DNA of 64,000 nucleotides. It comes from Singulisphaera sp. GP187. Lineage in GTDB: Bacteria > Planctomycetota > Phycisphaerae > Phycisphaerales > SM1A02. Under the pieces are notes generated by a model. It had not been told where the DNA came from. It searched no databases and worked only from the letters and a program-made list of their open reading frames with translations. The stretch spans positions 70,868-134,867 of the forward strand of contig CAMBMO010000004.1 in assembly GCA_945868805.1 (NCBI GenBank), given 5' to 3'. Positions 3,398 to 56,827 of this stretch are shown piece by piece. Both the position numbers and the translations under genes were made by a program. The stretch's first letter is position 1. Every line of letters starts with the position of its first letter.

Positions 3398-3399
3398 CG

Positions 3400-11566: not shown

Positions 11567-12299
11567 CTGCCACTCCTTGCGCCGGGTACTTCCCTCCGGA
11601 ACGTGCGCGCAATCGCGCGCGACATTCTCGCATCAGCGCGATCACTCGGGCGCGGAGTTCCTTCAATCCCAGCTCCGGATCGGCCAAGAGCCCCGAGCAT
11701 TCACTTGGAGAAATGGGCGCACCGATCGACGCCCAAATTCGTCCGCTCCAGAACGGGAGTTTTCGACTCGATGGCCAGACATCGAAGGCGCCATCGATAC
11801 CCATTGGGACGATCGGCGCACCCGACTTTCGCGCGAGCAATTCGACCCCCCGGCGAAAATCCTTCACCGAACCGTCGGGCGAACGAGAACCTTCGGGGTA
11901 GACCATGATCGTTCGACCTGCGGCGAGCTCTTCGAGCGCCGATCGCACAGCGTCTCGGTTGCCGCCGTCCGATCGAACGGGGATGCAGTTCAACGCGCGT
12001 AGCACAGCTGCGCAGAGCGGATTGCGGAAGAGTTCCTGCTTGGCCATCGGACGCGGAGCGCGATCACCAACGGCGAGCCCGTGAATCATCGGATCCAAGA
12101 ACGACTGATGATTGGCGATGAAAATCACGGGGCCGTTTCGCGGAACATGATGCGCACCTTCGACTCGGAATCGATACCCCCAGGACAAGGCGCTTTGACA
12201 GACTTGCGAGCAGGCATCCCAGAAGGCGGTCTTCACGAAGCCCGCTCCCGGCGCCCGGCGCCGGTGGGCAAGTGAGTTTCTCACGCACATCCCCCGCAC
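11553..12299 (-). CDS. plsC: 1-acyl-sn-glycerol-3-phosphate acyltransferase
   Basis: The acyltransferase motifs NHQSFLDP (HX4D) and VYPEGSRSPDG are present. Confidence 0.8.
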   Translation of the reverse strand: MRGMCVRNSLAHRRRAPGAGFVKTAFWDACSQVCQSALSWGYRFRVEGAHHVPRNGPVIFIANHQSFLDPMIHGLAVGDRAPRPMAKQELFRNPLCAAVLRALNCIPVRSDGGNRDAVRSALEELAAGRTIMVYPEGSRSPDGSVKDFRRGVELLARKSGAPIVPMGIDGAFDVWPSSRKLPFWSGRIWASIGAPISPSECSGLLADPELGLKELRARVIALMRECRARLRARSGGKYPAQGVADERA

Positions 12300-12988
12300 C
12301 GGATGTTTGATTCATTGAGTCTCGCACGAACGAGTCGCTCAAGCTCTGTCACGACCGACTCGAACGTCATGTCGCTCGTATCGATCTCCGCCGCTCCCGT
12401 TGGACACTGAAGCGGTCCCTCCGCGCGACCACGATCCGACGAGTCGCGCTCGATGATCTCAGCGAGTACGCGTTCCTCATCGACTTGCTCCCCGCGCGCC
12501 CGCAGTTCTTCTGTTCTTCGACTAGCGCGTACCTGCGGTCGAGCGTCGAGCCAGACACGAACGGTCGCATCTGGGAAAACAACGCTTCCTTGGTCGCGAC
12601 CCTCAGTCACCAAACGATCGTGCTGGAGTGCGACCTGTCGCTGCGCCCGGACCAGTCGATCGCGGACCTCGTGGTGCGATGCGATCAGCGAGACGATTCC
12701 AGTGACATCGGCGTCTCGGATGCGGTGGTGCACATCTCGTTCGCCGAGGCGAATCACTGGCGGTCTGCTCGAAAAGTCGACATCGAGAGTTGTGCGATCC
12801 ATCGCGATCGCCAAACGCGCTTCGTCGTGCGGATCGATCTTGGACTCGATCGCAAGCAACGCGACAGCTCGATACATGGCACCCGTGTCGAGCATGTCAA
12901 AGCCGAGCCGATCGGCGAGCATCAACGCCGCAGACGACTTGCCTGTTCCAGCTGGACCGTCGATCGTAATAATGATGGGAGAGCTCAT
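12281..12988 (-). CDS. cmk: Cytidylate kinase
   Basis: IITIDGPAGTGKSSAALMLADRLGFDMLDTGAMYRA is diagnostic. The Met at 12988 directly abuts the stop of the upstream gene; the ORF itself extends to 13075. Confidence 0.9.
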   Translation of the reverse strand: MSSPIIITIDGPAGTGKSSAALMLADRLGFDMLDTGAMYRAVALLAIESKIDPHDEARLAIAMDRTTLDVDFSSRPPVIRLGERDVHHRIRDADVTGIVSLIASHHEVRDRLVRAQRQVALQHDRLVTEGRDQGSVVFPDATVRVWLDARPQVRASRRTEELRARGEQVDEERVLAEIIERDSSDRGRAEGPLQCPTGAAEIDTSDMTFESVVTELERLVRARLNESNIRCGGCA

Positions 12989-30396: not shown

Positions 30397-30671
30397 TCGC
30401 GTGAAGATTCGAGTAATAATATCTGCACCGCTATCGCTCGCTCAGCACGAGCTTTAGGATCCACAGGTCGAGAACTTCGCTACAGACATGATCTGGTGGT
30501 GAGAAACATCGGTACATTTCTTAGACCGCACCTCATGGAAGATCGTGCGATTCGTCCGACGCGATGCCCGCCTCTTTCGAGGTGCGAGCATCGCGACGAG
30601 CGTTGGCGTGGACGGACCCGTTACAACAATCTTGGGTGAATTGGCAGAACTGGGCGATACTCGTGTCCACA
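30372..30671. promoter_or_regulatory. Cluster of DnaA-box-like 9-mers upstream of dnaA (dnaA autoregulation or candidate oriC)
   Basis: TTATCCACG lies at 30372-30380. CGTGGACAA at 30384-30392 (reverse complement TTGTCCACG) forms an inverted pair with it. GGATCCACA lies at 30457-30465 and GTGTCCACA at 30663-30671. A short AT-rich stretch, AGTAATAATATCT, lies around 30412-30424. Confidence 0.35.
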
Positions 30672-30695
30672 GGTGTTCTGCCGACTGGAGGTTTC

Positions 30696-32210
30696 ATGAA
30701 CCGCTGCTCGTCGATTGTCGATTCCCCCGTCGAAACACATCCGGAATCCCTCGCGAATGCACCTGCGAATGACCCAAACAAGGGGACAGGGATCGTGATC
30801 GATGCCCTCCGAAAGGAATTGAGGCAGCGACTCGGCAATCGAAAATACGAATTGTGGTTTCAGGACAATGCCCGACTCGACCTCAACGGTGAGAACGTTT
30901 GTGTGAGCGCTGAGAACCAGTTCACTGCGGATTGGATCGAGCGACACTTCAGGTCACAGCTTGAAGAAGCTGGGCGGGCGCTGATAGGCGCGACAGCGCG
31001 CGTCTCAGTGGAGGTTCGATCCGCTCAGGCGACGGCGGCAACCAATGCGGTTGCGACGAACCTGCAGCGGCCAACGACGATGACCGCTCCGACGACTCCC
31101 GAGCCGATGACTCGCAAACACAGGGATTCGCCACCACCTCGACGAGAGGAGTCCGGATCAGGGTGGCGACGATTTGAAGACTTTCTTGTCGCTCCACCAA
31201 ATCGGCTGGCGTTCGAAAGCGCACGGCAAGTCGCCGAAGTCGCGGGCGATCCACTTCGACTCCTGTTTCTCCATGGCTCATGCGGTGTCGGCAAGACCCA
31301 TCTGCTTCAATCGATCTGCCGTCGATTTCTGGAACGACAACCGAATGCAAAGGTGCGCTACGCGACTGGCGAGCAATTCACGAACGAATTCATCGCGGCG
31401 ATCCGCGAGGGGAATATTGAGCGATTTCGTCGAGAGACGAGACGGCTCGATTTGCTCGTCATCGACGACGTGCACTTCTTGGGCAACAAGACTGCCACGC
31501 AATCCGAGTGCCTTCACACGATCGATGCAATCGGATTTCATGGATCACGGATCGTGCTGGCGTCCGATGCGCATCCGAGGCAGATCGCAAAGTTCAGCGC
31601 GGCATTGGTGAGCCGTTTCCTCTCTGGGATGGTCGTCAAGGTCGACGACCCAGATCGCGCAACGCGATGCGCACTCGCGGAGCAGTTCGCACGACGACGG
31701 GGACTTGCGCTCCCTCCCGCTGCAATCGAGACGCTGGTCGATCGCGCAGGGACGAGTGTGCGCGAAATCGAGGGTGCGGTGATGACCATTGCGGCGGTTC
31801 ATTCACTTGGAGGGGTTGAAGTTGGGAGCGGGCAGATTCTGATCGAGCGTGCGCTCGGTCGGGTTGCGACATCGCATGCAGGTCGTTCCGTCAGGGTTGG
31901 GGAGATCCTTCAGGCTGTGTGCACAACTACCGGCGTCGAGCGCGACGACCTCGTGGGCGCCGGTCGCCACCGACGAGTGGTCACTGCGCGGGGGCTGGCG
32001 GCTCATCTCGCCCGTGAAATGACAACCCTATCGTTTCCAGAGATCGCGTCTGCTCTCGGTCGGTCGAGTCACTCGACCATTCACGCCGCTGCCGCACGAT
32101 TTCGAGAGCTGGTCGCCCGGTCAGAGTTGCTCGCGACGCGCAACGACCACGTGACCGCCGCCGACTTGATCGAGCGGACCCGACGCGAGGTCTTGCGCGT
32201 GCGCTCCTAG
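30696..32210 (+). CDS. dnaA: Chromosomal replication initiator protein DnaA
   Basis: LFLHGSCGVGKTHLLQSI (Walker A), LLVIDDVHFL, the SRFLSGMVVKVDDPD sensor region and the C-terminal DNA-binding helix region (SFPEIASALGRSSHSTIHAA) are present. The ORF starts at 30564; I prefer the Met at 30696. Confidence 0.95.
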   Translation: MNRCSSIVDSPVETHPESLANAPANDPNKGTGIVIDALRKELRQRLGNRKYELWFQDNARLDLNGENVCVSAENQFTADWIERHFRSQLEEAGRALIGATARVSVEVRSAQATAATNAVATNLQRPTTMTAPTTPEPMTRKHRDSPPPRREESGSGWRRFEDFLVAPPNRLAFESARQVAEVAGDPLRLLFLHGSCGVGKTHLLQSICRRFLERQPNAKVRYATGEQFTNEFIAAIREGNIERFRRETRRLDLLVIDDVHFLGNKTATQSECLHTIDAIGFHGSRIVLASDAHPRQIAKFSAALVSRFLSGMVVKVDDPDRATRCALAEQFARRRGLALPPAAIETLVDRAGTSVREIEGAVMTIAAVHSLGGVEVGSGQILIERALGRVATSHAGRSVRVGEILQAVCTTTGVERDDLVGAGRHRRVVTARGLAAHLAREMTTLSFPEIASALGRSSHSTIHAAAARFRELVARSELLATRNDHVTAADLIERTRREVLRVRS

Positions 32211-35241: not shown

Positions 35242-37575
35242 TTACGACTTCGGAGCGAGGATAAGTTTCACAACTTCCGATGTCGGAAGCTCAAGTGCGC
35301 CGAAAGCCTGACCAGCCGCGTCTGCGATAGGTCCGGTCGAACTTTGAATGAGCGCCTGAAGCGATTGAATCTGACTCGCATCAAGCAAGTTGCCGTACTT
35401 CCGCGCACTCGTGGCAACACTCGAAAGGAGCGTCGCACGATCTTCCTCGCTCGCGGATAGAGCTGCATTCATAAGTGAGCGCTGAGCCGTAGCGCCGGGG
35501 AGTAGCGCCAGAACTCGAGCGACCTTCGACTGAACTTCCCCTGTAGATGATTGAAGCGTGCCGATCAGAGTCGCTTCTGCGACGCGAACATCCAGAATCA
35601 GATTCGATGACTCCGCCAGTCTTCGAAGCGCATTCAACGACTCGTCGAGATAGATCGCTGACTCTTCCGGGGTCACTGCGATGCCACCGGCAGCACCGAC
35701 GGCAGAATCGATCGCCATGACAAACTGCTCTTCCGTCGCGATCGACGCGAAGACCGAAACACGGGGATCGTTTTCGAATTCGATCGAGAATGCCTCCGCA
35801 TCGCCACCATTGGCGATGATGACAACGGGCGAAGTCGCGGTCGACCGTGCAAGCCGGATCCCGTTGACCGAATCGACCATCGATGCGTGCGATCCCTGAA
35901 GAACGACGAGATCCATCGTCACGCCGGGAGCCAATTTCCCTTCAATTTCGCTCATAGAAGCGCCGGTCGTCACCGTGGAAATCCCCAAACTGCCGAGTCG
36001 GGCAGCGAGCGCCTGCCGATCTTCCTCCGTCGTTGCGATCACCGCACCGGTCATGCCCCCCATCTGAATCATCGATGCCAGCACGGGAACGACGAGCGAG
36101 TCCTGCTGGAATGAACTTTGTGGAAGTGAACTCGCGAGCACGATCGCCGCCTCAAATCGCACTCGTCGATCGGCGAACAAGAGGCACTCGACGATGGGAG
36201 AACGCCCACTCAGTGGCGCAACCAAGGTCGTAGCGCCACCATTTGTGGAAAGCACACGGATGCATTCGCGCGCGAGAAGGACATCGCTTGCATCGATCGC
36301 GAATCCGAGAGCCATCTGGGCGATTCGCGCACCACTCGCGGTCCCGAAGAACTGCGCGCTGTAGCGACTCGCAAACATCGATGACTCTTCCGATTCGGAT
36401 GCGACGTCGATTTCGAGAAGTCGCAGAAACATCGACCGTCGGAGATCTGACGCGACATAGATCGCCAGCGCTTGCTCGGAATCCGGATCAAGTTCAAGCG
36501 CCTTCATTGCCGACTGAATTGCCATCGTTTCGCAGTAGAGCGGAGTTGGGATTTCGATCCCGACAAGTCCATTCGTAGCGCCGTAGCTCCAGATCGCATT
36601 GCGAGCATCGGCTGGATAAGGAATAAGCGAGGGGGCCTGATCGAAATAGCGACGTGCAAGCGCCGTGTATTGGCTCGCCGGATCCTGAGAAGTCCCCCCG
36701 AGTCGGGCGTAAGCGCGCAGTGCAGCGGCCCGGACATCATCCGCGGCCGCTGGATTTGTCGCAAGCCCCAACAGATACGCCTGACTGCTTGGATAGCCAA
36801 TCTCAGCCAAGATTTCGCAAACCTGACGTTGTGTATCGACTTCAAGGTCAGGCAGTGCCGCGCAAAGTGGAGCGACCGCGAGGCGCTTGAGATCGACCAG
36901 AACTGACCGCGCAGAGTTCGCGAGCTTTGGGTTGCGTGCATCACCGAGGGCATTGAGGAGCGCATGCACTGCAAATGCGCCTGCGCGCATGAGTTTCGCC
37001 CGCGCGACCATCTCCTGTCGCATCGAACCACCAAGCGCCGCGACAGCTGCTTCGATCCGGAGCGCGCTACGACTCGTCGCACGCGTTCCAGCGAGGTACC
37101 GCGATTCGAGTTCAGCGACCAAAACATCGGCGCCTTCCATCCCGCGACCTCGCGAGAATGCACGGTCAACCTTGTCAGAGATCCCCCGCGCTTCGACGAG
37201 ATTCGCGATCTGCTCGTCCGTAATTCCAGAATCGAAAAGCGACTGGATCGAAGCCTGCGCTCCTTCCGGATTCCCTATGAGGATGTAATGAAGCGCCATG
37301 TCGAGGTCGCGAGTCTGCTGGGTCGTCGCCTCAGTTGAGGCGTCTACCGGCGCTTCCGCAGGCGCTTCAGCAGGCTCGTCCGCCTGAGGCGAAGCGTGGC
37401 AGAGCATGTCAGCACTCATCAGGCTGAACGTGACGAGGGATGCGAAAATGTAGGACGTGCGAAATGTGGGGTCGAACAATTGAATTCTGCTCCTGACGGA
37501 CTCGAGATTCCCATCGATGAATGTTGATCGAAACGTTGGACTGCCAAAAGTAGCGCAATCGGGAGGACTGCGCAA
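35242..37575 (-). CDS. Large hypothetical exported helical-repeat protein
   Basis: The long ORF has coding-like composition, a signal-like segment (IFASLVTFSLMSADMLCHA) and HEAT-like repeats. The start is uncertain, with a possible TTG near 37479. Confidence 0.5.
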   Translation of the reverse strand: MRSPPDCATFGSPTFRSTFIDGNLESVRSRIQLFDPTFRTSYIFASLVTFSLMSADMLCHASPQADEPAEAPAEAPVDASTEATTQQTRDLDMALHYILIGNPEGAQASIQSLFDSGITDEQIANLVEARGISDKVDRAFSRGRGMEGADVLVAELESRYLAGTRATSRSALRIEAAVAALGGSMRQEMVARAKLMRAGAFAVHALLNALGDARNPKLANSARSVLVDLKRLAVAPLCAALPDLEVDTQRQVCEILAEIGYPSSQAYLLGLATNPAAADDVRAAALRAYARLGGTSQDPASQYTALARRYFDQAPSLIPYPADARNAIWSYGATNGLVGIEIPTPLYCETMAIQSAMKALELDPDSEQALAIYVASDLRRSMFLRLLEIDVASESEESSMFASRYSAQFFGTASGARIAQMALGFAIDASDVLLARECIRVLSTNGGATTLVAPLSGRSPIVECLLFADRRVRFEAAIVLASSLPQSSFQQDSLVVPVLASMIQMGGMTGAVIATTEEDRQALAARLGSLGISTVTTGASMSEIEGKLAPGVTMDLVVLQGSHASMVDSVNGIRLARSTATSPVVIIANGGDAEAFSIEFENDPRVSVFASIATEEQFVMAIDSAVGAAGGIAVTPEESAIYLDESLNALRRLAESSNLILDVRVAEATLIGTLQSSTGEVQSKVARVLALLPGATAQRSLMNAALSASEEDRATLLSSVATSARKYGNLLDASQIQSLQALIQSSTGPIADAAGQAFGALELPTSEVVKLILAPKS

Positions 37576-37638
37576 TGATCACGCCCTATGGATTTGGTAT
37601 CGTCGGGTCGTGATTGATCCTCGGCACTCGTGCGCTGA

Positions 37639-37830
37639 GGCGTAGCGTGGATGGCTGGCGCCACCCATTCTGCGAGGGAAGGCGGTGAGAATCCGCCACG
37701 GACGCGCCGCCGTAACGGGTGGAGGGCAGCCCTCCGCAACCCGAATCTGAGAAGCCACTGGATGTTGCAAGCGCAAGATCTGGGAAGGCAGATTCGGACG
37801 CCCGAAGTCGGAAGACCTGCCTTCGCCATG
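37639..37830 (+). promoter_or_regulatory. Cobalamin (B12) riboswitch
   Basis: The conserved core reads on the plus strand: AGGGAAGGCGGTGAGAATCCGCC (37675-37697), GCCACTG (37754-37760), TGGGAAGGC (37781-37789) and the B12 box AGTCGGAAGACCTGCC (37806-37821). Nested helices are GGCGG/CCGCC, GGAGGG/CCCTCC and GAATCTG/CAGATTC. The boundaries are approximate. Confidence 0.8.
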
Positions 37831-37858
37831 CATCGCTCCCTCGCGAATAGGGATCCCG

Positions 37859-38821
37859 ATGTCAGTCGCCTTCCAGTTCAAATCCCAAATGAAGATTCCA
37901 CCATGCATCATGCCATGTGAGTTCCGCCGCCGAGTGGTCGTCGCATTCATCGTTTCAATTTCATGCGCGCCACCAAGTTTGGCGACTGACTTCGCGCAGT
38001 CAGTCATCTCGTATTCGAGCGGATCGAATCCAGCGAATGGCTACACGAATCCATTGGTCGCGCTCGGATCCCCCGAGAGATTCACTGGCGAAGGAATTGC
38101 TCCTGGTGCCGTGACTCCCTTTTACCCCTGCTTCGGCGCGAACGAGATCGTTTCGATCGGAGCCGGTGGCCAACTCACGCTTGGATTCAACCCTCCTCTT
38201 CGCGATGAGGCAGGGAATCCATTCGGAATCGACTTCCTCGTCTTTGGCAATTCGTTCTTCACAGACGGCGCGTATCCATCGGGTACGGTCGGTTCGCTCG
38301 CGACCGACGGAGGAAGGATCGAAGTTTCGGCGGACGGGATCGAGTGGTTCCTTGTTCCGAATGCGATCGCGGACGGACTCTTCCCGACGATCGGATCCAG
38401 CGATGCCGGACCGTACTCCTCACTCGCTGGTGGCGTGGATGCCGATCAGCACAAGCCTGTTGATCCGAAATGGACTGCGCAGAATCTCGTCGGGAAGTCC
38501 TACTCCGAACTGATCGAGATTTACGATGGATCAGCGGGCGGCGCAGGGATTGATCTTTCGAGCGTCGGTCTGGACCAAGTCATCGCCGTGCGAATCTCCG
38601 TTGCAGCAGGTCCGAATTCCAATGTCGAAATCGACGCAGTCGCTCGCGTGCGATCAACGCTTGCCCGAGCCGACACGAATGGCGATGGAGTGGTCGACGG
38701 CATCGATCTCGCCACGGTGCTGTCGGCGTTCGGAACGACAACGGAAATAGCCGATATTGATCACAGTGGCATGGTGGATGGTGCAGATCTTGCGGCGGTC
38801 TTAGCTGGATGGACCGGGTGA
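37859..38821 (+). CDS. Uncharacterised exported protein with a C-terminal dockerin-like double repeat
   Basis: It has a signal peptide (best if the start is the Met at 37910: MPCEFRRRVVVAFIVSISCAPPSLA). The tail is DTNGDGVVDGIDLATVL...DIDHSGMVDGADLAAVLAGW. It is the first gene after the riboswitch. Confidence 0.6.
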   Translation: MSVAFQFKSQMKIPPCIMPCEFRRRVVVAFIVSISCAPPSLATDFAQSVISYSSGSNPANGYTNPLVALGSPERFTGEGIAPGAVTPFYPCFGANEIVSIGAGGQLTLGFNPPLRDEAGNPFGIDFLVFGNSFFTDGAYPSGTVGSLATDGGRIEVSADGIEWFLVPNAIADGLFPTIGSSDAGPYSSLAGGVDADQHKPVDPKWTAQNLVGKSYSELIEIYDGSAGGAGIDLSSVGLDQVIAVRISVAAGPNSNVEIDAVARVRSTLARADTNGDGVVDGIDLATVLSAFGTTTEIADIDHSGMVDGADLAAVLAGWTG

Positions 38822-39606
38822 CTGTTCGTCGCGGATTCACGTTGGTGGAAGCGCTTGTTTCCATCGGCATCGTGACACTCTTGCTCTCGCTCTCCCTCTC
38901 AGGCGTTGAGAGTGTGCGTGAGAGCAGCAGAGGAAGCGAATGCGGAGCGCGACTTCGCCAACTCGCAGTCGCAGCACACTCTTATTCGAATGCGTTCCGA
39001 GATTGCTACCCGCCGGCGGTGCTCTTCGAAGTCACCCCGACGGGAGTTCGAACAGTCGCGTGGGATTTCGTTCAGAATGCAAACGGGGAAGTTTCTCCCG
39101 GACCGCTCTGGTCATTCACCGACCATCCATATCGAACGCAGCAGTGCCCCGCATTTACGGGCTCGAGCACATTCGGAAATGACCCATACACAGGATTCAA
39201 TTACAACACGACCTTTATTGGTGCGGAAGGTTCATGGCCTACGGTTGGGATGGACGGTCAAGTCTTGGCCGGTTGGCGCAGCGCACGCCGCGGTTTGAAA
39301 GCAAGTCAACATCGACGCTGCGCCGAGACCGCGCTCTTTGGTGATGGCGGTTGGAAGGGCGGCGCAAACAAGTTTATGCGTGCTCCAAGCGCGACCGTTG
39401 AGATGGACCTCGGAGTCGTCTATGCGGGAGCGCAAGCGTATCGACATCAAGGCTGCACAAATGTCGCATGGCTCGATGGGCATGTCAGCGGAGTTTGTCA
39501 ACAGTGCAAAGGGGTGCATGCCACCGAGGCGATGATCGACTCCCCTCTTGGATGGCCCGCGAACGGTTTCTTGAGCGACGATGATTCCGCTTACGACCCG
39601 CGGTAG
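38809..39606 (+). CDS. Prepilin-type N-terminal cleavage/methylation domain protein with an H-X9-DG motif (DUF1559-type)
   Basis: The RRGFTLVEALVSIGIVTLLLSL pseudopilin N-terminus and HQGCTNVAWLDG (H-X9-DG) near the C-terminus are present. The start overlaps the stop of the previous gene (ATG 38809 or GTG 38818, against the stop at 38819-38821). Confidence 0.75.
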   Translation: MDRVTVRRGFTLVEALVSIGIVTLLLSLSLSGVESVRESSRGSECGARLRQLAVAAHSYSNAFRDCYPPAVLFEVTPTGVRTVAWDFVQNANGEVSPGPLWSFTDHPYRTQQCPAFTGSSTFGNDPYTGFNYNTTFIGAEGSWPTVGMDGQVLAGWRSARRGLKASQHRRCAETALFGDGGWKGGANKFMRAPSATVEMDLGVVYAGAQAYRHQGCTNVAWLDGHVSGVCQQCKGVHATEAMIDSPLGWPANGFLSDDDSAYDPR

Positions 39607-39666: not shown

Positions 39667-41454
39667 TCAGCGACGACCGAACCGTCGCTCGATCTCGATG
39701 ATGGGAATTCGAATCGAAGTTGGGCGACCATGCGGACAATTCGACGATCGGTCTGTCGTCGATCTGGCCGAGAGTAATTCCGCGATTTCTTCTCTCGATA
39801 GTCGGTCTCCGCCCTTGACCGCAGCCTTGCACGCCATCATGTCGAGAATGTCCGCAAGTGCTTGCTCGCGAAGTGTGGAGTCGTCGCTCGACGTTGCGGC
39901 ACTCGCGAGCGACTCATCACAGAGTGCGCGCACGACGAATGTTGCGGCATCGACTTTGCGTCCGATCAGAAATCCTGGGAACGCATGCACGGCGATCGTT
40001 CGCGGTCCGACTGCCGTTACTTCGATCCCCAGTCGCGCGAAGAGTGGCCCGAGCGTCTCGAGATTCGCAAGCGACTCTGGAGAAACATCCGCCGTTGCTG
40101 GGATCATCAGCCGCTGCGACATCAAGTCGCCTCCCCCGATGCGCGATCGAATCTCTTCGAACATGACTCGCTCGTGGAGCGCATGCTGATCGACGATCAC
40201 GACGGCGTCATCTTCCGCGAGGATCAACCACGTGTCGTTGACTTGCAGGACTTGACGCACTGCGACCGGAGGCGCGAGCAGATGTCCCTGATCTTCTTCC
40301 ATCACGACCCGTGAATGCGAAAACGAGTGCGAGGGCGAGGCTCGATCGACCGCGGATCGAGTCGAAACTGATGCAGAACTCGGCGCAGTTCGCGGATCGA
40401 TCCCATTCGAATCCGAGAGGGCGTGCGAGATCAATCTCGAATCCCCGACCGTCAGGTCCTCGCTCCGCAGTGCATCTTGTACTGATCGATAGACGAGGCG
40501 ATGCATCCACGATGGATTGCTCCAGCGAACCTCGCTCTTCTGCGGATGGACATTGACATCGACGAGCGAAGGGTCGACCGTCAGAAAGATTGCGAAGACT
40601 GGCTGCAACGATGGTTCCGCAAGCCCCCGGTACGCCTCGCGAACCGCGTGGACGAGTGAACGGTCGACGATTGGGCGACCATTGACAAAGATGCGCTGGG
40701 TTCTGCTCACCGACCGCATGGACGCTGGTCGACAGACGATCCCCAGCACACGACTCGCGAATTCCTCGCCGATTGCCTCGCCCGCGACCGTCAAGGGATT
40801 CTGTCCGAGCGCATCGCCGAAAACATCCGAGACCCGGCCGAAGCAGTCATTCGCCGTCGCGAAATCGAGGACTTTTCGTCCCCCACTTTCAAGGCGAAAC
40901 GCCACCGAAGGATGCGAAAGCGCAGCGTTACAGACGACTTCAGTGACCCGAGCCGCTTCGGCTGGATCTCCTCGGAGAAACTTTCGGCGTGCGGGAACAT
41001 TCGAAAAGAGACCCGCGACGACAATCGACGTTCCTGGTGGTCCAGACGATGGTTTTGCTTCACTGACTTCGCCGAACCTTGATTCGATCGTCCAAGACTG
41101 CCCGTTGCCACGAGTCGCTGATGCCAGTTTCACATGGGAGACAGACGAGATGGCACAGAGTGCCTCGCCCCGAAACCCGAGTGTCCTGATGCGGTTCAAG
41201 TCTTCGCTCGTTGTGAGCTTGCTCGTGGAGTGAGGGGCAAGAGCGAGCGAAAGTTCGTCGTGCGGTATTCCGTCCCCATCGTCGATGACTTCCAATCGTT
41301 CTCGTCCGCCACCTTCGATGCGGACGACGATGCGAGTCGCCCCGGCGTCAATGGCGTTCTCAACGAGTTCTTTCGCAACGCTTGCCGGACGCTCGATCAC
41401 CTCACCCGCGGCGATTTGATTCACGAGCGCAGATGAGAGAGTCCGAATCGGCAT
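39667..41454 (-). CDS. mutL: DNA mismatch repair protein MutL
   Basis: MPIRTLSSALVNQIAAGEVIERPASVAKELVENAIDAG and DDGDGI match the GHKL ATPase. The ORF extends to 41877, but the Met at 41454 gives the canonical N-terminus. Confidence 0.95.
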   Translation of the reverse strand: MPIRTLSSALVNQIAAGEVIERPASVAKELVENAIDAGATRIVVRIEGGGRERLEVIDDGDGIPHDELSLALAPHSTSKLTTSEDLNRIRTLGFRGEALCAISSVSHVKLASATRGNGQSWTIESRFGEVSEAKPSSGPPGTSIVVAGLFSNVPARRKFLRGDPAEAARVTEVVCNAALSHPSVAFRLESGGRKVLDFATANDCFGRVSDVFGDALGQNPLTVAGEAIGEEFASRVLGIVCRPASMRSVSRTQRIFVNGRPIVDRSLVHAVREAYRGLAEPSLQPVFAIFLTVDPSLVDVNVHPQKSEVRWSNPSWMHRLVYRSVQDALRSEDLTVGDSRLISHALSDSNGIDPRTAPSSASVSTRSAVDRASPSHSFSHSRVVMEEDQGHLLAPPVAVRQVLQVNDTWLILAEDDAVVIVDQHALHERVMFEEIRSRIGGGDLMSQRLMIPATADVSPESLANLETLGPLFARLGIEVTAVGPRTIAVHAFPGFLIGRKVDAATFVVRALCDESLASAATSSDDSTLREQALADILDMMACKAAVKGGDRLSREEIAELLSARSTTDRSSNCPHGRPTSIRIPIIEIERRFGRR

Positions 41455-41475
41455 GAATGAAAGTATGGTACGACG

Positions 41476-42252
41476 ATGCGTGACACGGTCGTGATCGGAG
41501 ACATCCACGGCTGTGGCGAGGAACTCCGAAAGATGTTCGACCGACTTCGACGCTGGGCAGGAGAGTCCCGAATCATTCTCGTGGGGGATTTGTTGACGAA
41601 GGGGCCCCGACCCGATCTCGTGGTCGAGGAGATTCTTCACCGACAACAATTGGGCTGGCGAATCGAAATCGTTTGCGGAAATCACGAACCGCGGGCCCTC
41701 GCAGCACTCCGCCGCGCTGGTCCGGACGGACGAACCAACGATCTTCCCCCACGACTCGCTGAGATGGTCGACATTCTCGCGGACGCGGATTTGTTGGAGG
41801 AAGCGCGGGACCTCCTCCGTGCATCCATGCGAACTCCATTCATCAGGGGACGCAATCCACACTGGACAGTCGTCCACGCCGGGGTCGATCCAATGCGGGG
41901 TTTCGAGAAGACTCCCCAGCGCTTGCGCATGTCTATCAAGTCAGCGCCTGCCGAAGACGACTGGTGGTGGCATTACGACGGCTCGGACGGACTGCTTGTC
42001 GTCGGGCACAAACCCCTTTCTCGACCGCTCATCCTTCGCAGGCCGGACGGGCGACCAGTCGTCGCCGCGATCGACACGGGGTGTGTCTACGGTGGATTCC
42101 TGACCGCCTATTTTATCGGTGCAGATCGACTGTTGATGATTCCGAGCAAGCAGAGACGACAGTTCAATTTCCGCCATCGAACGAGCCGTCGACCAGCCGA
42201 TAGCGCATGGCGAGCGGCATCCGCCGTCCAGGTCCGAAAGCTCGCGCGCTGA
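41476..42252 (+). CDS. Metallophosphoesterase (ApaH/PrpE-like Ser/Thr phosphatase family)
   Basis: The GDIHGC, GDLLTKGP and GNHE motifs are present. Confidence 0.8.
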   Translation: MRDTVVIGDIHGCGEELRKMFDRLRRWAGESRIILVGDLLTKGPRPDLVVEEILHRQQLGWRIEIVCGNHEPRALAALRRAGPDGRTNDLPPRLAEMVDILADADLLEEARDLLRASMRTPFIRGRNPHWTVVHAGVDPMRGFEKTPQRLRMSIKSAPAEDDWWWHYDGSDGLLVVGHKPLSRPLILRRPDGRPVVAAIDTGCVYGGFLTAYFIGADRLLMIPSKQRRQFNFRHRTSRRPADSAWRAASAVQVRKLAR

Positions 42253-43852
42253 GCTTTGGAATCATCGGTGCTTGGAATCGTTTGTATTGAGCTCGATCGA
42301 TCGCAGTCGTCCAACGCACCACGAGGTCTCGGTCCAACTTTGTCGCGAGCACGATCTCTTCGACGGAAAGTTCGTCATCGACCCAACCGGTAATGATGCT
42401 GTCAAGAACCGAATAGGGAGGGAGCGAATCTTGATCCGTTTGATTCGGTCGAAGCTCCGCCGATGGTGGCTTTGTCAGACTGGAAACTGGAATTGGCGCG
42501 ACTGCGAACCCGAATGCATTGTGATTGTTGTTCAGCCATGAGGCAACCGAAAAAACCTGTGACTTCAGCAGGTCGCCCAGTGGAGCCAATCCCCCGCACA
42601 TGTCTCCATAGAGCGTTGCATATCCAACTGCCAATTCGCTCTTGTTTCCCGTCGACAACACGAGAGCACCTGTTGCGTTGGAAAGCGTCATGAGAGTCAA
42701 TCCTCGCAATCGACTCTGCAGATTTTCATCCGTCACACCAGTGACCTTCGCGACGCGACCGATCGCGGCACCCGCTAACTCGTATCCACTATTGATCGAG
42801 AGGACATCGGGCGGCTTCATGCCCAACCGCTTCGCAGAGTCGAAGGCATCCGTGCGAGACTCGACGGATGAGTACGGTCCCGGCATCGAAACACCGCGCA
42901 CTCGATCCGGACCGAGCGCCGCGACCGCGAGTGCTGCGACGAGCGCGCTATCAATCCCGCCGGAAAGACCCAAGAGAACCCGCTCATGCCCCGTTTTCGA
43001 GACATAACCGCGAATGGCGCTGGTGATCGCATGCGCGTGCTCTTCGTCATCCACCATGTCGGGGGGCTTCGCCATCGCGCAGCCGCGATCCGCAATGAGG
43101 ACCTCCTCAGTAAACCTTCGAGCGAACGATCCACTCCCGTCCGGATGGACAAGGCACGAACCACCGTCAAAGACGAAATCGTCGTTCGCCCCGACTGCAT
43201 TCACGCTCGCGATCGAGACGGCGTATTTTGCCGCGGCATTGCCGACCAGTTGAATTCGACGCGCCTGCTTTCCCTCGAAGAATGGCGAGGCGCTCGGAAC
43301 GACGATGAGATTCGCACCCGCCTGCACCATTTGTTTCGTCAGATCGTTGGAGTAGCAATCGCTCTCCCCAACATCAGCACCCCGCCAGAAGTCCTCGCAA
43401 ATCAACACTCCGACTCTTTCTCCCTCTACGTCAATCAGCGCAGAATCGACTCCCGGCGCGAAGTACCGTGTTTCGTCAAAGACGTCGTACTGAGGAAGGA
43501 GTCGTTTCATATGAACGCTCTCAACTTGACCCCCTCGCAAGACGACGCACGCATTCGCGATTGGGAGCGGACGACCCGCGACTCGCCACGGAGAACCGAC
43601 GATCACCGCAACCTCGCCGGCACCATCACTCTTCAATTGCGTCGCCAGCTCGACGAGAGTCCGTGCGCAAGCGTCGACGAATCCACCACGAAGGAGGAGA
43701 TCGCGAGGCGGGTAACCGACCAGCGAGAGCTCTGATGTGATCGCGAGTTGAGCGCCTCCCCGTCTCGCCTCGATCACTCGTTTGCGAATGAGAGATGCGT
43801 TGTGTACGAGATCTCCGACGACAGAGTCCGATTGAATGAGCGCGATGCGCAT
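42164..43852 (-). CDS. nadE: Glutamine-dependent NAD+ synthetase
   Basis: An N-terminal CN-hydrolase domain (MRIALIQSD...ITSELSLVGY...ICEDFW) is followed by the NAD synthase P-loop GLSGGIDSALVAAL. Confidence 0.92.
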   Translation of the reverse strand: MRIALIQSDSVVGDLVHNASLIRKRVIEARRGGAQLAITSELSLVGYPPRDLLLRGGFVDACARTLVELATQLKSDGAGEVAVIVGSPWRVAGRPLPIANACVVLRGGQVESVHMKRLLPQYDVFDETRYFAPGVDSALIDVEGERVGVLICEDFWRGADVGESDCYSNDLTKQMVQAGANLIVVPSASPFFEGKQARRIQLVGNAAAKYAVSIASVNAVGANDDFVFDGGSCLVHPDGSGSFARRFTEEVLIADRGCAMAKPPDMVDDEEHAHAITSAIRGYVSKTGHERVLLGLSGGIDSALVAALAVAALGPDRVRGVSMPGPYSSVESRTDAFDSAKRLGMKPPDVLSINSGYELAGAAIGRVAKVTGVTDENLQSRLRGLTLMTLSNATGALVLSTGNKSELAVGYATLYGDMCGGLAPLGDLLKSQVFSVASWLNNNHNAFGFAVAPIPVSSLTKPPSAELRPNQTDQDSLPPYSVLDSIITGWVDDELSVEEIVLATKLDRDLVVRWTTAIDRAQYKRFQAPMIPKLSARAFGPGRRMPLAMRYRLVDGSFDGGN

Positions 43853-53270: not shown

Positions 53271-54482
53271 ATGAACGAAAATGGCGATCAATCGCGCTTG
53301 ATTCGAGAGTTGATCGAAGGAGAACTTCCGAGCCTCATCGCCCTCCGCCACGACCTGCACGCGCATCCAGAGATCGGCCACTGCGAAACTCGAACGTCCG
53401 CCACCGTCCAACGCGAATTATCAGCGGCGGGCGTCGAGTTTCAGTCGGGTGTGGGCGGAGGGACCGGAGTCCTCGCGCACATTTCTGGTTCCGACGGCGC
53501 GGCCATCGGTCTGCGCGCCGATCTGGATGCACTTCCGATTGCCGAAAGTACTGCGCTTCCTTATGCGTCGGTCTTCCCAGGCAAGATGCACGCGTGCGGA
53601 CACGATGGTCATACGACGATTCTGATCGGCGTTGCTCGGATCCTTGCGAAACTTGGACGAATCGCACCGTTGACTCGACCAGTGACCCTGCTTTTTCAGC
53701 CTGCGGAGGAGAATTTGGGTGGCGCATCAAAGATGATCGAGGACGGCTGTCTCGCTGGAAGACTCGGTCCGCCAGTGAGCGAAATCTACGGACTCCACTG
53801 TTGGCCATGGCTGCCAATTCGTTCTGTGGGGGTTCGCGACGGACCCATACTCGCGGCAACCGACTCGTTTACCGTCACCATTCACGGTCGAGGATCTCAC
53901 GCCGCATGGCCCCACCTCTCCAACGACCCGATTGTCGCGATCGCTTCGGTTATTACTGCGCTCCAGTCGATCGTCAGCCGCAACACTGATCCCGTCGACG
54001 CAGTCGTTGTCTCGGTCTGCACGATTCGCGCCGGCGACGCATTCAATGTCATTCCACAAGAGGGTGTGATCGGAGGGACAATGAGGACGCTCAGCGCGAG
54101 TTCGCGTGCATTGACTCTCAGACGCATCGAAGAGATTTCCGATCACGCGGCGAAGATGCATGATTGTTTCGCGACGGTGGAAATTCAACGGGGATGTCCC
54201 GCGACTATCAACGATCCCGTCGCGACTCGCTCGGTGCGTCGCGCGGTTGCGCAAATGGCAGGAACTCGACTGGTTGAAATGAAAGCCCCATTCATGGGTG
54301 GGGAGGATTTCGCTCACTATGGCGAAGCAATCCCCGCAAGTTTCTTCCTGCTCGGGATCCAAGATCTAGATGCACCGCCCTCTCCCCCGCTGCATCATCC
54401 GAAGTTTGATTTTAACGATTCCGCAATTGCGGTCGGCATCGAAGCGATGTGTCTGCTCGCGATCGGCAAACCATTGAATTGA
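53271..54482 (+). CDS. M20-family amidohydrolase (N-acyl-amino-acid amidohydrolase-like)
   Basis: LRHDLHAHPE, MHACGHDGHT and FQPAEE metal-ligand contexts are present. The ORF starts at 53214; I prefer the Met at 53271. Confidence 0.85.
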   Translation: MNENGDQSRLIRELIEGELPSLIALRHDLHAHPEIGHCETRTSATVQRELSAAGVEFQSGVGGGTGVLAHISGSDGAAIGLRADLDALPIAESTALPYASVFPGKMHACGHDGHTTILIGVARILAKLGRIAPLTRPVTLLFQPAEENLGGASKMIEDGCLAGRLGPPVSEIYGLHCWPWLPIRSVGVRDGPILAATDSFTVTIHGRGSHAAWPHLSNDPIVAIASVITALQSIVSRNTDPVDAVVVSVCTIRAGDAFNVIPQEGVIGGTMRTLSASSRALTLRRIEEISDHAAKMHDCFATVEIQRGCPATINDPVATRSVRRAVAQMAGTRLVEMKAPFMGGEDFAHYGEAIPASFFLLGIQDLDAPPSPPLHHPKFDFNDSAIAVGIEAMCLLAIGKPLN

Positions 54483-54538
54483 TCGCGAATCGTGCCTCTT
54501 TCGTTTGCCTCAACGATGTACTGGGGTACGATTGGGCG

Positions 54539-56827
54539 ATGACCATCCAAAGAGTCGCACTTGCCCTCGTTCCCCTCTTCTGCGGAGTATCGGCACTCGC
54601 GGCGTTGGAGTCCTCGCAATCGACAATTTCGAATCCCGCTCGAGTCGCGATCCCATCTGTGGAGCGCGTGAGTTCACCACTGACGCGACGTGCAGACCAA
54701 CAAGCGGTGGCACGACATCTGCAAGAGTCGGTGAGCGCGCTCGAAATCAATGACTCCCTCTGGAATGCACTCTCCTCGCACGACGATGTCCTGATCACTG
54801 ATCTCCCGCTGGGCCCACTTGCGAGTCGCTCCCTCGTCTTGCACCGGGTCAATCCATTCGAACTCCAACCAACGATCGTTGGCGCAACCATTGGCCGCGA
54901 TGGAGTCGTAACTGAAACGCCGATCCCCGTACCTGAACTTGCCTGCTACATCGGGTCGGTTCTCGATGATTCCGACTCTCGCGTACTGCTCGCACGAGGC
55001 GAAGGATTTGTCGTTGGATATGTGCAGACTCAAGAGAAGACCTGGATCATCTCGAACGAGCGCGCAGGCTCGTCCGGTCCAATTGTCTCCTATGCGATGG
55101 ACGAGGTGCCACCGGGCACTTTCCCAATTCCCGAATGGACATGCCAGACGCTGATGTCGCCCGATTGGGCTGGTGGCGAAGGTTCTCATGGAGGGATTGC
55201 AGATGTTCAGGAGCCTTGCTGGCAATCCCGCATCGCCATCGACACGGATGTCGAATTCCTCGGACTCTTCGGAAACAACCAAGCGGCAGCGATCGGTTAT
55301 GTCGGAACACTCTTCGCGGCACTCTCTGATATTTATCCGCGGGATGTTCATCTGCGACCTGGTATGAGCTATCTGCGACTCTGGACCGATGGTGCAGATC
55401 CCTGGGGCGCGTCGGGAACCGTGAATCAGCTCTACGAATTCCAGGCATACTGGGAACAGCAGGTCTTCACTGGAGTCCGAGATTCTGCCGCGCTCCTATC
55501 GGGACGCGGGCTCGGTGGCGGAGTGGCTTGGCTCAACTCTGGTTGTGGGTCCTATGCCTATTCAGTCTCGGCGAACCTGGCCGGTTCGTTCCCCTATCCC
55601 CTCGTCGACAACAACGGCGGCAATTGGGATATCATGGTTTTTGCCCACGAACTTGGGCATAATTACGGCGCGCCCCACACGCACTCATACACGCCACCAG
55701 CGGACGGATGTGGATCATCTCCTCAGGATTGCTCCGCTGCATCGAACGATCTCGGCACGATCATGAGTTACTGCCACCAGTGTTCGGGTGGCATGAGCAA
55801 CATCAATCTGTACTTTCACCAGGCCAATGTTGGGTCGATCGAGGCTTACTTACCCGCGAGCGGTTGTGGGTTTACCGCGGCAGCGCAACCAGCCGTTGCT
55901 ATACCAGATCGCATGAGCGCGCTTCCTGGAACGACCATCGACATCGATGTCCTGAAGAATGACATCCGATTCAATTGCGAGAATCTGACGATCGTCGCGA
56001 ACTCGCCGCCGGCGCAGGGTTGCACGGCAGTGATCGTCCCCGGAGCGGGCCCATCCGGGCGAGCCATCGTGCGGTTCACTTCCCCTGCTCTCGGTCCGAC
56101 GTCCATCACGTTTAGCTACACAGTCGCCGAACTGAGCGGTTCACAAGCGCTCGCGCTGGTGACCGTCGATCTCGTCTCGCTCCGACTCCCCGAGTATCCC
56201 ACTGGAGACACCCCCGGCGTGACGACGCGGTATTACGAACTCAACAACCCTTCCGTCCTGCCAAACTTCGACATGCTCATTCCGTATGACACGACGAGCG
56301 TGCCACAGATGAACTTCGGCAGCACTAACGGAAACTTCGCGACGAGCAATCGTTCCGAGCAGGTTGGGGCAGTCTTCACGGGTTGGCTCAATGTTCCAAC
56401 TGGCGGAACATGGACACTCTTCACACATTCCGACGATGGCTCGCGACTGCTGATTGGCAGCGACCCGCTCGTCGCCAATGATGGACTGCACCCCATGGTT
56501 GAAAGGAGCGGATCAATCGATTTGGCTCAAGGAAAGCACGCTGTGAGAGTCGAATTTTTCGAGAACGGCGGTGGCGCAGGATTAATCGTCTCATGGTCTG
56601 GCCCAAACACGCCGAAGTCGGTGATCCCCGCAAGTGCACTGACCGCTGGTGGAACGATTAATCAATCGGACATTAACCACGACGGAGTTGTCGATGGAAT
56701 CGACCTCACCATACTGCTGTCAGGATGGGGAGCATCACAGGCTGGCGCCGACATCAATAATGACGGAACAGTCGATGGCACCGATCTCGCGACCTTACTC
56801 GCTGGATGGTCCGCGCCACCGAACTGA
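54539..56827 (+). CDS. Exported reprolysin-like zinc metalloprotease with a PA14 domain and a C-terminal dockerin-like repeat
   Basis: It has a signal peptide (MTIQRVALALVPLFCGVSALAA) and the zinc site HELGHNYGAPH. The PA14-like segment is FTGWLNVPTGGTWTLFTHSDDGSRLLIG...VEFFENGGGAGLIVSW. The tail is DINHDGVVDGIDLTILL...DINNDGTVDGTDLATLLAGW. Confidence 0.75.
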   Translation: MTIQRVALALVPLFCGVSALAALESSQSTISNPARVAIPSVERVSSPLTRRADQQAVARHLQESVSALEINDSLWNALSSHDDVLITDLPLGPLASRSLVLHRVNPFELQPTIVGATIGRDGVVTETPIPVPELACYIGSVLDDSDSRVLLARGEGFVVGYVQTQEKTWIISNERAGSSGPIVSYAMDEVPPGTFPIPEWTCQTLMSPDWAGGEGSHGGIADVQEPCWQSRIAIDTDVEFLGLFGNNQAAAIGYVGTLFAALSDIYPRDVHLRPGMSYLRLWTDGADPWGASGTVNQLYEFQAYWEQQVFTGVRDSAALLSGRGLGGGVAWLNSGCGSYAYSVSANLAGSFPYPLVDNNGGNWDIMVFAHELGHNYGAPHTHSYTPPADGCGSSPQDCSAASNDLGTIMSYCHQCSGGMSNINLYFHQANVGSIEAYLPASGCGFTAAAQPAVAIPDRMSALPGTTIDIDVLKNDIRFNCENLTIVANSPPAQGCTAVIVPGAGPSGRAIVRFTSPALGPTSITFSYTVAELSGSQALALVTVDLVSLRLPEYPTGDTPGVTTRYYELNNPSVLPNFDMLIPYDTTSVPQMNFGSTNGNFATSNRSEQVGAVFTGWLNVPTGGTWTLFTHSDDGSRLLIGSDPLVANDGLHPMVERSGSIDLAQGKHAVRVEFFENGGGAGLIVSWSGPNTPKSVIPASALTAGGTINQSDINHDGVVDGIDLTILLSGWGASQAGADINNDGTVDGTDLATLLAGWSAPPN

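Follow-up and report, generated by a model that had tools for sequence, protein, structure and literature searches.

A cobalamin riboswitch ahead of two overlapping genes

We analyzed a stretch of 64,000 nucleotides (nt) of Singulisphaera sp. GP187, a member of the Planctomycetota (assembly GCA_945868805.1, contig CAMBMO010000004.1, positions 70,868 to 134,867), which we refer to as the window. On its plus strand, a cobalamin riboswitch (37632-37838) precedes two overlapping genes: gene 1 (37889-38821), encoding an exported and putatively BtuH-like protein of 310 amino acids (aa) with a dockerin tail, and gene 2 (38809-39606), encoding a prepilin-type DUF1559/H-X9-DG protein of 265 aa. We consider it likely that these elements form a module for the capture and uptake of corrinoids that is repressed by vitamin B12.

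The aptamer of the riboswitch is full length. Its match to the Rfam model RF00174 (cmscan, Rfam 15; + strand) covered model positions 1-189 of 189 and reached 74.0 bits (E = 2.3e-16), well above the gathering score of 31.5, which confirms the riboswitch that an earlier note on this DNA had proposed from the sequence. It was the sole non-tRNA Rfam match across the 64-kb window. All the motifs quoted in that note were recovered on the plus strand where it had placed them: AGGGAAGGCGGTGAGAATCCGCC (37675-37697), which corresponds to the AGGGAA..GGTG..AATCC core, GCCACTG (37754-37760), TGGGAAGGC (37781-37789) and, inside the RF00174 match, the B12 box AGTCGGAAGACCTGCC (37806-37821). The aptamer is therefore as complete, B12 box included, as classical cobalamin riboswitches such as the btuB leader of E. 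coli and Salmonella (RF00174), and on our reading it would likewise control a gene of B12 acquisition. The classical regulons consist of btuB, btuFCD, cob/cbi genes and B12-independent isozymes, whereas a BtuH-like binder and a pseudopilin are found here instead.

The mechanical open reading frame of gene 1 runs from 37859 to 38821 (320 aa), and the conserved ATG at 37889 defines the 310-aa product. This product starts with a Sec signal peptide read from the sequence, MKIPPCIMPCEFRRRVVVAFIVSISCAPPSLA (37889-37984, +), with a predicted cut before TDFAQ, and the mature homologs all align from a DFA/PFA motif onward. It ends with a dockerin-type double calcium-binding repeat, DTNGDGVVDGIDL ... 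DIDHSGMVDGADL (38666-38815, +), in which the pattern D-x-[DN]-x-[DS]-G-x-V-D can be seen twice. The Pfam model Dockerin_1 (PF00404) scored 22.8 bits on gene 1, just under its cut-off of 22.9, but all 101 aligned homologs matched it (best E = 9.8e-9) and the family profile matched solved dockerins (E = 8.5e-6). The signal peptide and C-terminal dockerin-like repeat that had been described for this gene are thus both present. We found at least 521 homologs of gene 1, and all the named ones come from Planctomycetota or from metagenome-assembled genomes (MAGs) of Phycisphaerae.

No Cohesin domain was found among the scanned proteins of the window, and the structural model of gene 2 had no cohesin-like match, which argues against a dockerin-cohesin pairing of the two gene products. 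The window encodes a second exported protein with a dockerin tail (54449-56827, +; 792 aa), whose domains are an M12 reprolysin-like metalloprotease, Big_9, PA14 and, at the C-terminus, Dockerin_1 (30.2 bits). This suggests that the dockerin is a recurrent envelope or sorting tag in this organism and is not specific to the B12 module.

Gene 2 overlaps the 3' end of gene 1, stop codon included, by 13 nt, which confirms the overlap noted previously (38809-39606 against the frame 37859-38821); an alternative GTG start at 38818 would yield a GTGA overlap. Its N-terminus carries the prepilin cleavage and N-methylation motif followed by the start of a hydrophobic helix, RRG/FTLVEALVSIGIV... (38827-38892, +), and the Pfam model N_methyl (PF07963) scored 22.7 bits for a cut-off of 21.2. 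The cleavage site reads RRG/FTLVEAL, with a glutamate at +5; a regular-expression scan found no other such N-terminus in the window, and gene 2 is the sole prepilin-type gene there. The Pfam model DUF1559/SBP_bac_10 (PF07596) reached 28.6 bits (cut-off 23.3) with a match that covers residues 35-72 only, corresponding to profile positions 2-38 of 268, and many orthologs of gene 2 present a precomputed PF07596 match. Further downstream lies the H-X9-DG motif, HQGCTNVAWLDG (39445-39480, +; H213-x9-D223-G224). In an alignment of 102 orthologs, H213 was kept in at least 90% of the sequences and D223/G224 were invariant. The NCBIfam H-X9-DG model did not match gene 2 at E <= 0.1; JGI labels many of its orthologs 'prepilin-type processing-associated H-X9-DG protein'. 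These results agree with the prepilin N-terminus and H-X9-DG motif attributed to gene 2 in the earlier note.

The orthologous group of gene 2 contains at least 609 proteins with 50-77% identity. These proteins share their prepilin motif, their N-terminal DUF1559 region, their H-X9-DG motif and their restriction to Planctomycetota with the DUF1559/H-X9-DG proteins of this phylum (PF07596, PF07963). DUF1559 is the largest paralog family of P. limnophila, with 68 copies, two of which are essential, and no known function (PMC10632474). Unlike DUF1559 at large, the orthologous group of gene 2 is represented by a single copy in the window and is tied to a riboswitch and to a defined partner. The AlphaFold2 model of gene 2 (mean predicted local distance difference test, pLDDT, 92.4) presents a single long N-terminal helix at residues 12-62, like those of type IV pilins and pseudopilins, followed by a beta-rich head. 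Foldseek searches of this model against the PDB returned no cohesin, periplasmic binding protein or BtuF-like fold, which argues against a BtuF-like role. We also considered the segment LDGHVSG of gene 2 (residues 222-227, 39472-39489, with G228 at 39490-39492) as a DxHxxG cobalamin-binding motif. The fit of DGHVSG was judged to be a coincidence, because the final glycine varies from one ortholog to another and DUF1559 proteins contain DGH in general.

Conservation of the riboswitch and of its two genes

We scanned one genome per GTDB species with gene 1, which identified relatives in 469 genomes, and kept 80 loci with flanking sequences. Among the first 11 loci, Rfam placed RF00174 immediately before the gene in 10, and a nhmmer riboswitch profile built from those Rfam matches then detected the riboswitch upstream of the gene-1 homolog in 76 of the 80 loci, which represents 76 of the 77 assessable ones. 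Indeed, three of the misses are contigs ending at the gene (L015, L041 and L077), and the fourth (L044) has lost the aptamer and is the only ortholog locus with full flanks lacking the riboswitch. When the Rfam model was applied to 20 loci, 16 passed the gathering score; those below it were L044, two loci with large insertions (L020 and L025) and one at a contig edge (L078). A gene-2 ortholog followed gene 1 directly in 79 of the 80 loci, usually with an overlap of a few bases and with E-values from 1e-26 (copies cut by the contig end) to 1e-145. In the exception, L016, the contig ends about 140 nt past gene 1. The reciprocal search, starting from gene-2 homologs on long contigs, recovered the trio of riboswitch, ~310-aa dockerin-tailed protein and pseudopilin in all three cases. 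The trio recurs in well over a hundred diverse genomes, and homologs of both genes do lie behind RF00174 elsewhere, a linkage that the earlier note had asked to be tested.

Part of this conservation is shared with the surroundings. In the window, the module is preceded by a divergent HEAT-repeat gene (35242-37575, -) with a tRNA about 3 kb upstream, and followed by the convergent genes of MutL (39667-41877, -) and of the NAD synthase NadE (42164-43852, -). This HEAT-repeat/tRNA/MutL/NAD synthase synteny is kept across Phycisphaerae MAGs, which indicates that the linkage in close orthologs is partly inherited. More distant loci with rearranged gene orders are therefore of particular weight.

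We then scanned metagenome contigs with an alignment of eight sequences representing a distant, PEP-CTERM-tailed subgroup, and obtained 80 loci with 35-48% identity to that reference. Among the 72 loci with enough upstream sequence, nhmmer detected a riboswitch within 700 nt upstream in 55, and Rfam added six, raising the total to 61 of 72. The added loci include L092, L098, L099 and L153, in which the riboswitch heads a longer operon with a DUF1559-like gene before the BtuH-like gene. All 20 nhmmer-positive distant loci that we sampled passed the Rfam gathering score (54-118 bits). One locus, L143 (519-1968), presents two tandem cobalamin riboswitches (113 and 79 bits), then a cyclic di-GMP (c-di-GMP)-I riboswitch, before the BtuH-like gene, and some family members may respond to c-di-GMP.

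DUF1559-like genes were present in 45 of the 80 distant loci, many of which are short contigs. Some immediately follow the BtuH-like gene, others lie 1-2 kb beyond it, and others precede it. This varied gene order argues for functional coupling and not for inherited synteny. One frequent layout consists of the riboswitch, the BtuH-like gene, a beta-propeller protein (PQQ_2, often dockerin-tailed) and DUF1559. The propellers lying between the BtuH-like gene and DUF1559 in L096, L102, L112, L129, L147, L152 and L155 are of the BamB/PQQ_2 type and 400-670 aa long, and three database proteins (P0257, P0266 and P0375) appear to be fusions of a BtuH-like domain with such a propeller.

Several distant loci also contain genes of B12 metabolism or transport. 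The operon of L092 (1767-5344) comprises a cobalamin riboswitch, a DUF1559-like gene, a BtuH-like gene and a PduO-type cobalamin adenosyltransferase (Cob_adeno_trans, E = 3e-56), which links the module directly to cofactor salvage. In seven loci (L093, L120, L121, L127, L130, L156 and L160) we found a divergent TonB-dependent receptor (Plug and barrel, ~700 aa) placed on its own RF00174 riboswitch, back to back with the riboswitch of the BtuH-like gene. Across all loci, the receptor alone was found in seven, DUF1559 alone in 124 and both in none. This exclusivity is suggestive. It may be confounded by lineage, however, and the receptor-bearing loci amount to about five independent contigs. Two more observations concern individual loci. 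About 4.5 kb downstream of the module of L163, on the minus strand (10493-12816), lie genes for an ATP-binding cassette (ABC) ATPase, a FecCD-family (BtuC-type) permease and a 283-aa protein without a Pfam match; the ATPase and permease may constitute an inner-membrane importer, of which no equivalent was seen in the window. In L082, a match to the small RNA Acido-Lenti-1 (5849-5893; 37.7 bits for a threshold of 37) lies downstream of the BtuH-like/DUF1559 pair.

The N-domain of gene 1 and BtuH-type domains

Between its signal peptide and its dockerin tail, the gene-1 protein contains a globular N-domain (residues 44-266; 37988-38656, +). No Pfam or NCBIfam model matched these residues, as the scans detected the dockerin/EF-hand-like tail alone. 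The absence of a Pfam model explains why annotation pipelines call these proteins hypothetical. The AlphaFold2 model of gene 1, built with 101 homologs, was predicted with good confidence (pLDDT 90.7; predicted template-modelling score 0.80), and its top Foldseek match in the PDB was 8blw_B (E = 2.5e-7; probability 1.0), the sole match below E = 1e-3. This chain is BtuG1 of B. thetaiotaomicron, which consists of a beta-propeller and of a C-terminal domain of ~250 residues homologous to BtuH2 (PMC10404256; PMC8941943), a surface protein that binds B12 (PMC8941943). The H domain of BtuG1 is poorly resolved in the 8BLW cryo-electron microscopy map.

An exhaustive profile search with the N-domain alone yielded a family of 1639 clusters at 50% identity. 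This family presents many architectures and no Pfam model, and its tails are mostly of the PEP-CTERM type or dockerins, the dockerin of gene 1 being swapped for PEP-CTERM-type sorting tails in distant members. We built a broad profile from 71 cluster representatives and ran it against 177,635 distinct PDB sequences. Its sole significant match was again 8blw_B, at residues 425-498 inside the H domain (E = 1.2e-3), with a weak collinear second segment at 625-640. No PDB sequence was matched by a narrow N-domain profile or by bridging family members of ~635 aa with a C-terminal domain (P0316 and P0368), and phmmer of gene 1 against the PDB sequences returned calmodulin/dockerin noise only.

We further compared the N-domain to the btuB1-btuG1 locus of Bacteroides. 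The locus was reached with a 74-residue BtuG1 fragment as query, which returned three short fragments only, and its frameshifted open reading frames were stitched before scoring. The N-domain profile scored 28.0 bits on the stitched BtuG1 H domain, and none of 400 shuffled controls exceeded 2.9. The hhalign comparison of the N-domain with the BtuH-type domain gave a probability of 95.3% (E = 2.1e-8); its alignment spans 71 core columns, with 32% identity. Four collinear blocks are common to the N-domain and BtuH/BtuG1: FAxxVxxYxP..G.[FY].N; vSiG.GG.lT..F...D[FL].vfGN.F; [ED][GP]G.[IV].VS.D; and L..I..VRI. We considered the B12- or metal-contacting residues of BtuH2 (Q333/F334, N399/F401, E406, H476, Y510, W577 and S582/E584). 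At the level of motifs, and short of a rigorous residue mapping, the N-x-F spacing of the B12-contacting Asn399/Phe401 recurs in GN131xF133, an invariant motif of gene 1. By the same motif-level comparison, the Bacteroides domains would present GNPF/GNAS opposite GN131xF133, and the GQFIN block opposite the aromatic residue of G61-[YF]62-x-N64.

From these comparisons, we conclude with good confidence that the N-domain of gene 1 and the BtuH-type B12-binding domain are remote homologs. The earlier statement that gene 1 belongs to no recognised family holds in that no Pfam or NCBIfam model covers the N-domain, but it has to be revised in view of the remote BtuH-type homology found by Foldseek, by the PDB profile search and by hhalign. 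The same applies to the absence of known B12 transport genes: neither btuB nor btuFCD is found in the window, but gene 1 itself is remotely related to an accessory protein of Bacteroides B12-transport loci. As a divergent transport accessory, it would not make the regulon aberrant.

In Bacteroides, B12 riboswitches control the surface B12 binders BtuH and BtuG1/BtuGH, which often occur beside a beta-propeller or fused to one (PMC8941943, PMC10404256, PMC13616437). Homologs of BtuH have been reported mostly from Bacteroidota, plus three Firmicutes (PMC13616437). Compared to the B. thetaiotaomicron proteins (7BIZ, 8BLW), gene 1 encodes a related globular domain, but identity is very low and the core alone aligns. 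Both share the cobalamin riboswitch, export and association with the envelope (predicted for gene 1), a TonB-dependent receptor as neighbour (in some lineages) and a beta-propeller that is often adjacent or fused. However, BtuH is a surface lipoprotein, whereas gene 1 combines a Sec signal peptide with a dockerin or PEP-CTERM anchor and no lipid, and it has no PKD domains. The conserved partner also differs, since gene 1 is paired with a DUF1559 pseudopilin, which Bacteroides lacks. Finally, the sequences of the propeller partners resemble BamB/PQQ proteins and show no detectable relation to BtuG, so that the analogy with the BtuG-BtuH pair is architectural only.

A second type of extracellular binder, the jellyroll BtuJ (DUF4465), is widely distributed beyond Bacteroidota (PMC13616437). 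The proposed likeness to BtuJ lies in extracellular corrinoid capture within B12 transport loci. We rejected gene 1 as a BtuJ/DUF4465 protein: none of the 101 homologs matched the DUF4465 Pfam model, even at E <= 10, and both the Foldseek and the sequence matches of gene 1 lead to the BtuH domain.

The structural searches also raise the question of whether gene 1 binds corrinoids at all. Its runner-up Foldseek matches, from E = 1.5e-3, are beta-sandwiches of the carbohydrate-binding module CBM32, discoidin and lectin types (E = 1e-3 to 1e-2). Gene 1 could accordingly bind glycans or surfaces and gene 2 could be an adhesion pilin, the riboswitch tying a surface programme to B12 status. Such a role would fit the c-di-GMP riboswitches found before some family members (L110 and L143), a class typical of surface and biofilm genes, and the frequent presence of PEP-CTERM and dockerin tails among proteins associated with exopolysaccharides. 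However, BtuG1 is four orders of magnitude ahead of any CBM match and is the sole match at the sequence level in the PDB, and BtuH likewise weakly resembles a CBM-like domain of alginate lyase, yet binds no glycans (PMC8941943). The neighbours of the family elsewhere are B12 genes (a btuB-like receptor on its own riboswitch and a cobalamin adenosyltransferase), and riboswitch linkage in 76/77 and 61/72 loci is typical of genes for B12 transport or metabolism. We therefore regard a glycan-binding or adhesive function as very improbable.

Proposed control of the module and possible role of the pseudopilin

The sequence 3' of the aptamer was compared across 17 close loci. Immediately after the aptamer lies a P13-like hairpin (37830-37862, +), made of an outer stem GCATCG/CGATGT, an inner stem CCCT/AGGG and a loop CGCGAAT. 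Its pairing was kept in these loci (94% of cells paired, against 36-55% when the partners were slid), with compensatory changes at two pairs and an invariant GCG in the loop. The L5 loop of the aptamer (ACGCG; 37702-37706, +) is the proposed kissing-loop partner of this hairpin loop. L5 reads (A/U)CGCG in 62 loci, and a downstream hairpin loop with the complementary CGCG was present in all 62, whereas the control motif CGGG was found in the hairpin loops of only 24 of the same loci. In four loci L5 reads NCCCG, and three of these have CGGG-bearing hairpin loops; since only four loci have a differing L5, the covariation is thin. L5-L13 kissing-loop platforms are known from other cobalamin riboswitches, and the complementarity fits such a platform, within the limits of a small covariation sample. 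Like classical RF00174 leaders, the leader presents a hairpin directly 3' of P1 with a loop complementary to L5. Here, in contrast to those leaders, the purine-rich 3' arm does not serve the conserved start as ribosome-binding site, since that start lies ~27 nt further downstream. No intrinsic terminator and no match to a sigma-70-like promoter were found in the leader. The lack of an intrinsic terminator suggests that control proceeds by occlusion of the initiation region, by Rho-dependent termination, or by both.

The hairpin also bears on the start codon of gene 1. The ATG at 37859 falls in the 3' arm of its outer stem, a conserved RNA helix; relatives carry GTG or GAG in its place, L003 has it out of frame, and in L004 a stop follows. 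We therefore rejected 37859 as the start. The ATG equivalent to 37889 (M11) was kept in 17 of the 17 close loci, so the comparison indicates that the true start is probably 37889; some gene callers use 37910 (M18). In the Phycisphaerae MAG locus without the riboswitch (L044; GTDB, VGXL01000072; 5900-6003), the aptamer is gone and a remnant of the platform hairpin is kept, with its loop changed from CGCG to GGTG. From its sequence, this locus looks like a natural loss of B12 control.

The rest of the window is mostly of a housekeeping nature, with genes for DnaA, UvrA, UvrB, RecA, Obg and HflX. The GC-content of the operon is similar to that of the window (respectively, 58.4% and 57.7%). DnaA (30564-32210, +) is located ~5.4 kb upstream of the riboswitch, and the module may therefore lie near the replication origin. 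Three consecutive SPFH/Band_7 genes (480, 322 and 807 aa) occupy 1955-6788 (-).

We propose the following mechanism. When adenosylcobalamin is ample, it would bind the aptamer (37632-37838), L5 would then dock on the CGCG loop of the hairpin (37830-37862), and expression of the bicistronic mRNA would be shut off, either through occlusion of the non-Shine-Dalgarno initiation region before 37889, through Rho-dependent termination, or both. Scarcity of B12 would instead allow expression of the two genes, which are translationally coupled. The gene-1 protein would be exported via Sec and bind corrinoids outside the cytoplasm through its BtuH-like N-domain, while its dockerin tail (PEP-CTERM in relatives) would hold it at the cell envelope. 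After cleavage by prepilin peptidase, the gene-2 protein would be anchored by its long N-terminal helix, either to the inner membrane or within a pseudopilus. It would act one-to-one with the gene-1 protein, either bringing the binder to the surface as a cargo-specific pseudopilin or relaying captured corrinoids inward. The earlier note had proposed a corrinoid-repressed capture or uptake module built on a pilin-like protein. Its regulatory and capture parts are well supported by the linkage of riboswitch, gene 1 and gene 2, by the rearranged distant loci and by the B12 genes of distant operons; the role of the pseudopilin is one that we infer.

Several observations weigh against this reading. 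The TM-score of the 8blw_B match, normalised to the 320-residue query, was only 0.33, and it is this low value that led us to seek independent evidence for the link with BtuH. BtuH2 (7BIZ) was absent from the top 50 Foldseek matches, and the second BtuH-type domain of the Bacteroides locus scored just 16.1 bits (shuffle maximum 2.9). The relationship is remote, with an aligned core of ~70-100 residues and residue correspondences at motif level. Unlike BtuH, gene 1 and its homologs have no conserved lipobox cysteine. The head of the gene-2 model has no significant relative in the PDB, the nearest Foldseek matches being the pilins MshA and PAK at E ~ 1. Among the distant loci, 11 of 72 had no detectable cobalamin riboswitch, and L110 (215-311), where no cobalamin riboswitch was detected, has a c-di-GMP-I-GGC riboswitch (70 bits) before its BtuH-like gene. 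Finally, the window contains no transporter gene (btuB, btuFCD) or other B12 gene.

The role of gene 2 is where the alternatives differ most. Our preferred reading is that the pseudopilin positions the binder or relays corrinoids from it. It could instead serve export only, as a minor pseudopilin of a type II secretion system (T2SS) that helps to release the gene-1 protein as a soluble, hemophore-like B12 scavenger. Gene 2 has the hallmarks of T2SS and type IV pseudopilins (the site G/FTLVE with its glutamate at +5, a helix of 50 residues, and weak similarity to the NCBIfam models of GspG, GspJ and ComG), the tight translational coupling suggests a cargo-specific helper, and BtuH-type domains do bind B12 (PMC8941943). 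However, the dockerin and PEP-CTERM tails, which would anchor the protein to the envelope, argue against free release, and the core genes of a T2SS were not found in the window or in the sampled loci. The processing motif and long hydrophobic helix are common to gene 2 and T2SS/ComG pseudopilins, but the matches to the NCBIfam models ComGE, GspG and GspJ are far below cut-offs (E = 0.003-0.08), no gene for an assembly ATPase, platform protein or secretin is linked, and the head of gene 2 lacks a significant structural match. Moreover, no classical T2SS substrate is known to have a private pseudopilin. We consider this private secretion helper rather improbable and rank it third among the roles of the pseudopilin.

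The second-ranked role is import. The DUF1559 protein could form or tip a retractile pseudopilus that carries corrinoids, or the loaded binder, through the envelope and thereby replaces the TonB-dependent BtuB step, much as competence pseudopili pull in DNA. Such a route is consistent with the observation that a TonB-dependent receptor and DUF1559 never occur together beside the BtuH-like gene (7, 124 and 0 loci for receptor, DUF1559 and both, respectively), and with the persistence of DUF1559 across changes in gene order and in the binder's tail. The 68 DUF1559 copies of P. limnophila would also fit a set of substrate-specific adaptors (PMC10632474). On the other hand, the exclusivity may reflect lineage, as the receptor loci represent about five independent contigs of unassigned taxonomy; no pilus assembly ATPase or secretin is linked, and the gene-2 model is without a significant structural relative. 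We regard pseudopilus-driven import as unlikely, though less so than the secretion helper.

Our full-text search, whose coverage leaves out most subscription journals, found no literature linking cobalamin riboswitches with Planctomycetes, DUF1559, H-X9-DG, prepilins or PEP-CTERM. The new element of the module is its pilin-like partner, and the rest resembles the accessory B12 capture of Bacteroides. Gene 1 represents at most a distant branch of the BtuH domain family that differs in signal peptide, anchor and partners. Since the riboswitch acts as a ligand-specific label, the orthologous group of gene 2 can be tied to B12 supply with high confidence, and DUF1559, a large family without a function, gains its first testable role through this link. 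More speculatively, and with doubtful odds in our view, the DUF1559 pseudopilins of Planctomycetota could be substrate-specific adaptors of pilus- or pseudopilus-based uptake, the gene-2 ortholog being the corrinoid-specific one that replaces the BtuB step together with the BtuH-like binder. If true, a family that counts dozens of paralogs in each genome would receive its first function, and this would suggest that each DUF1559 paralog pairs with its own exported binding protein.

Binders of the BtuH type have been thought to be essentially a speciality of gut Bacteroidota (PMC13616437). The remote BtuH branch described here, with ~1,600 clusters, occurs in environmental Planctomycetota with other anchors (dockerin, PEP-CTERM) and other partners. 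This suggests that the extracellular capture of corrinoids has an older origin and a wider distribution than recognised, one that includes freshwater plankton, in which B12 is traded as a commodity.

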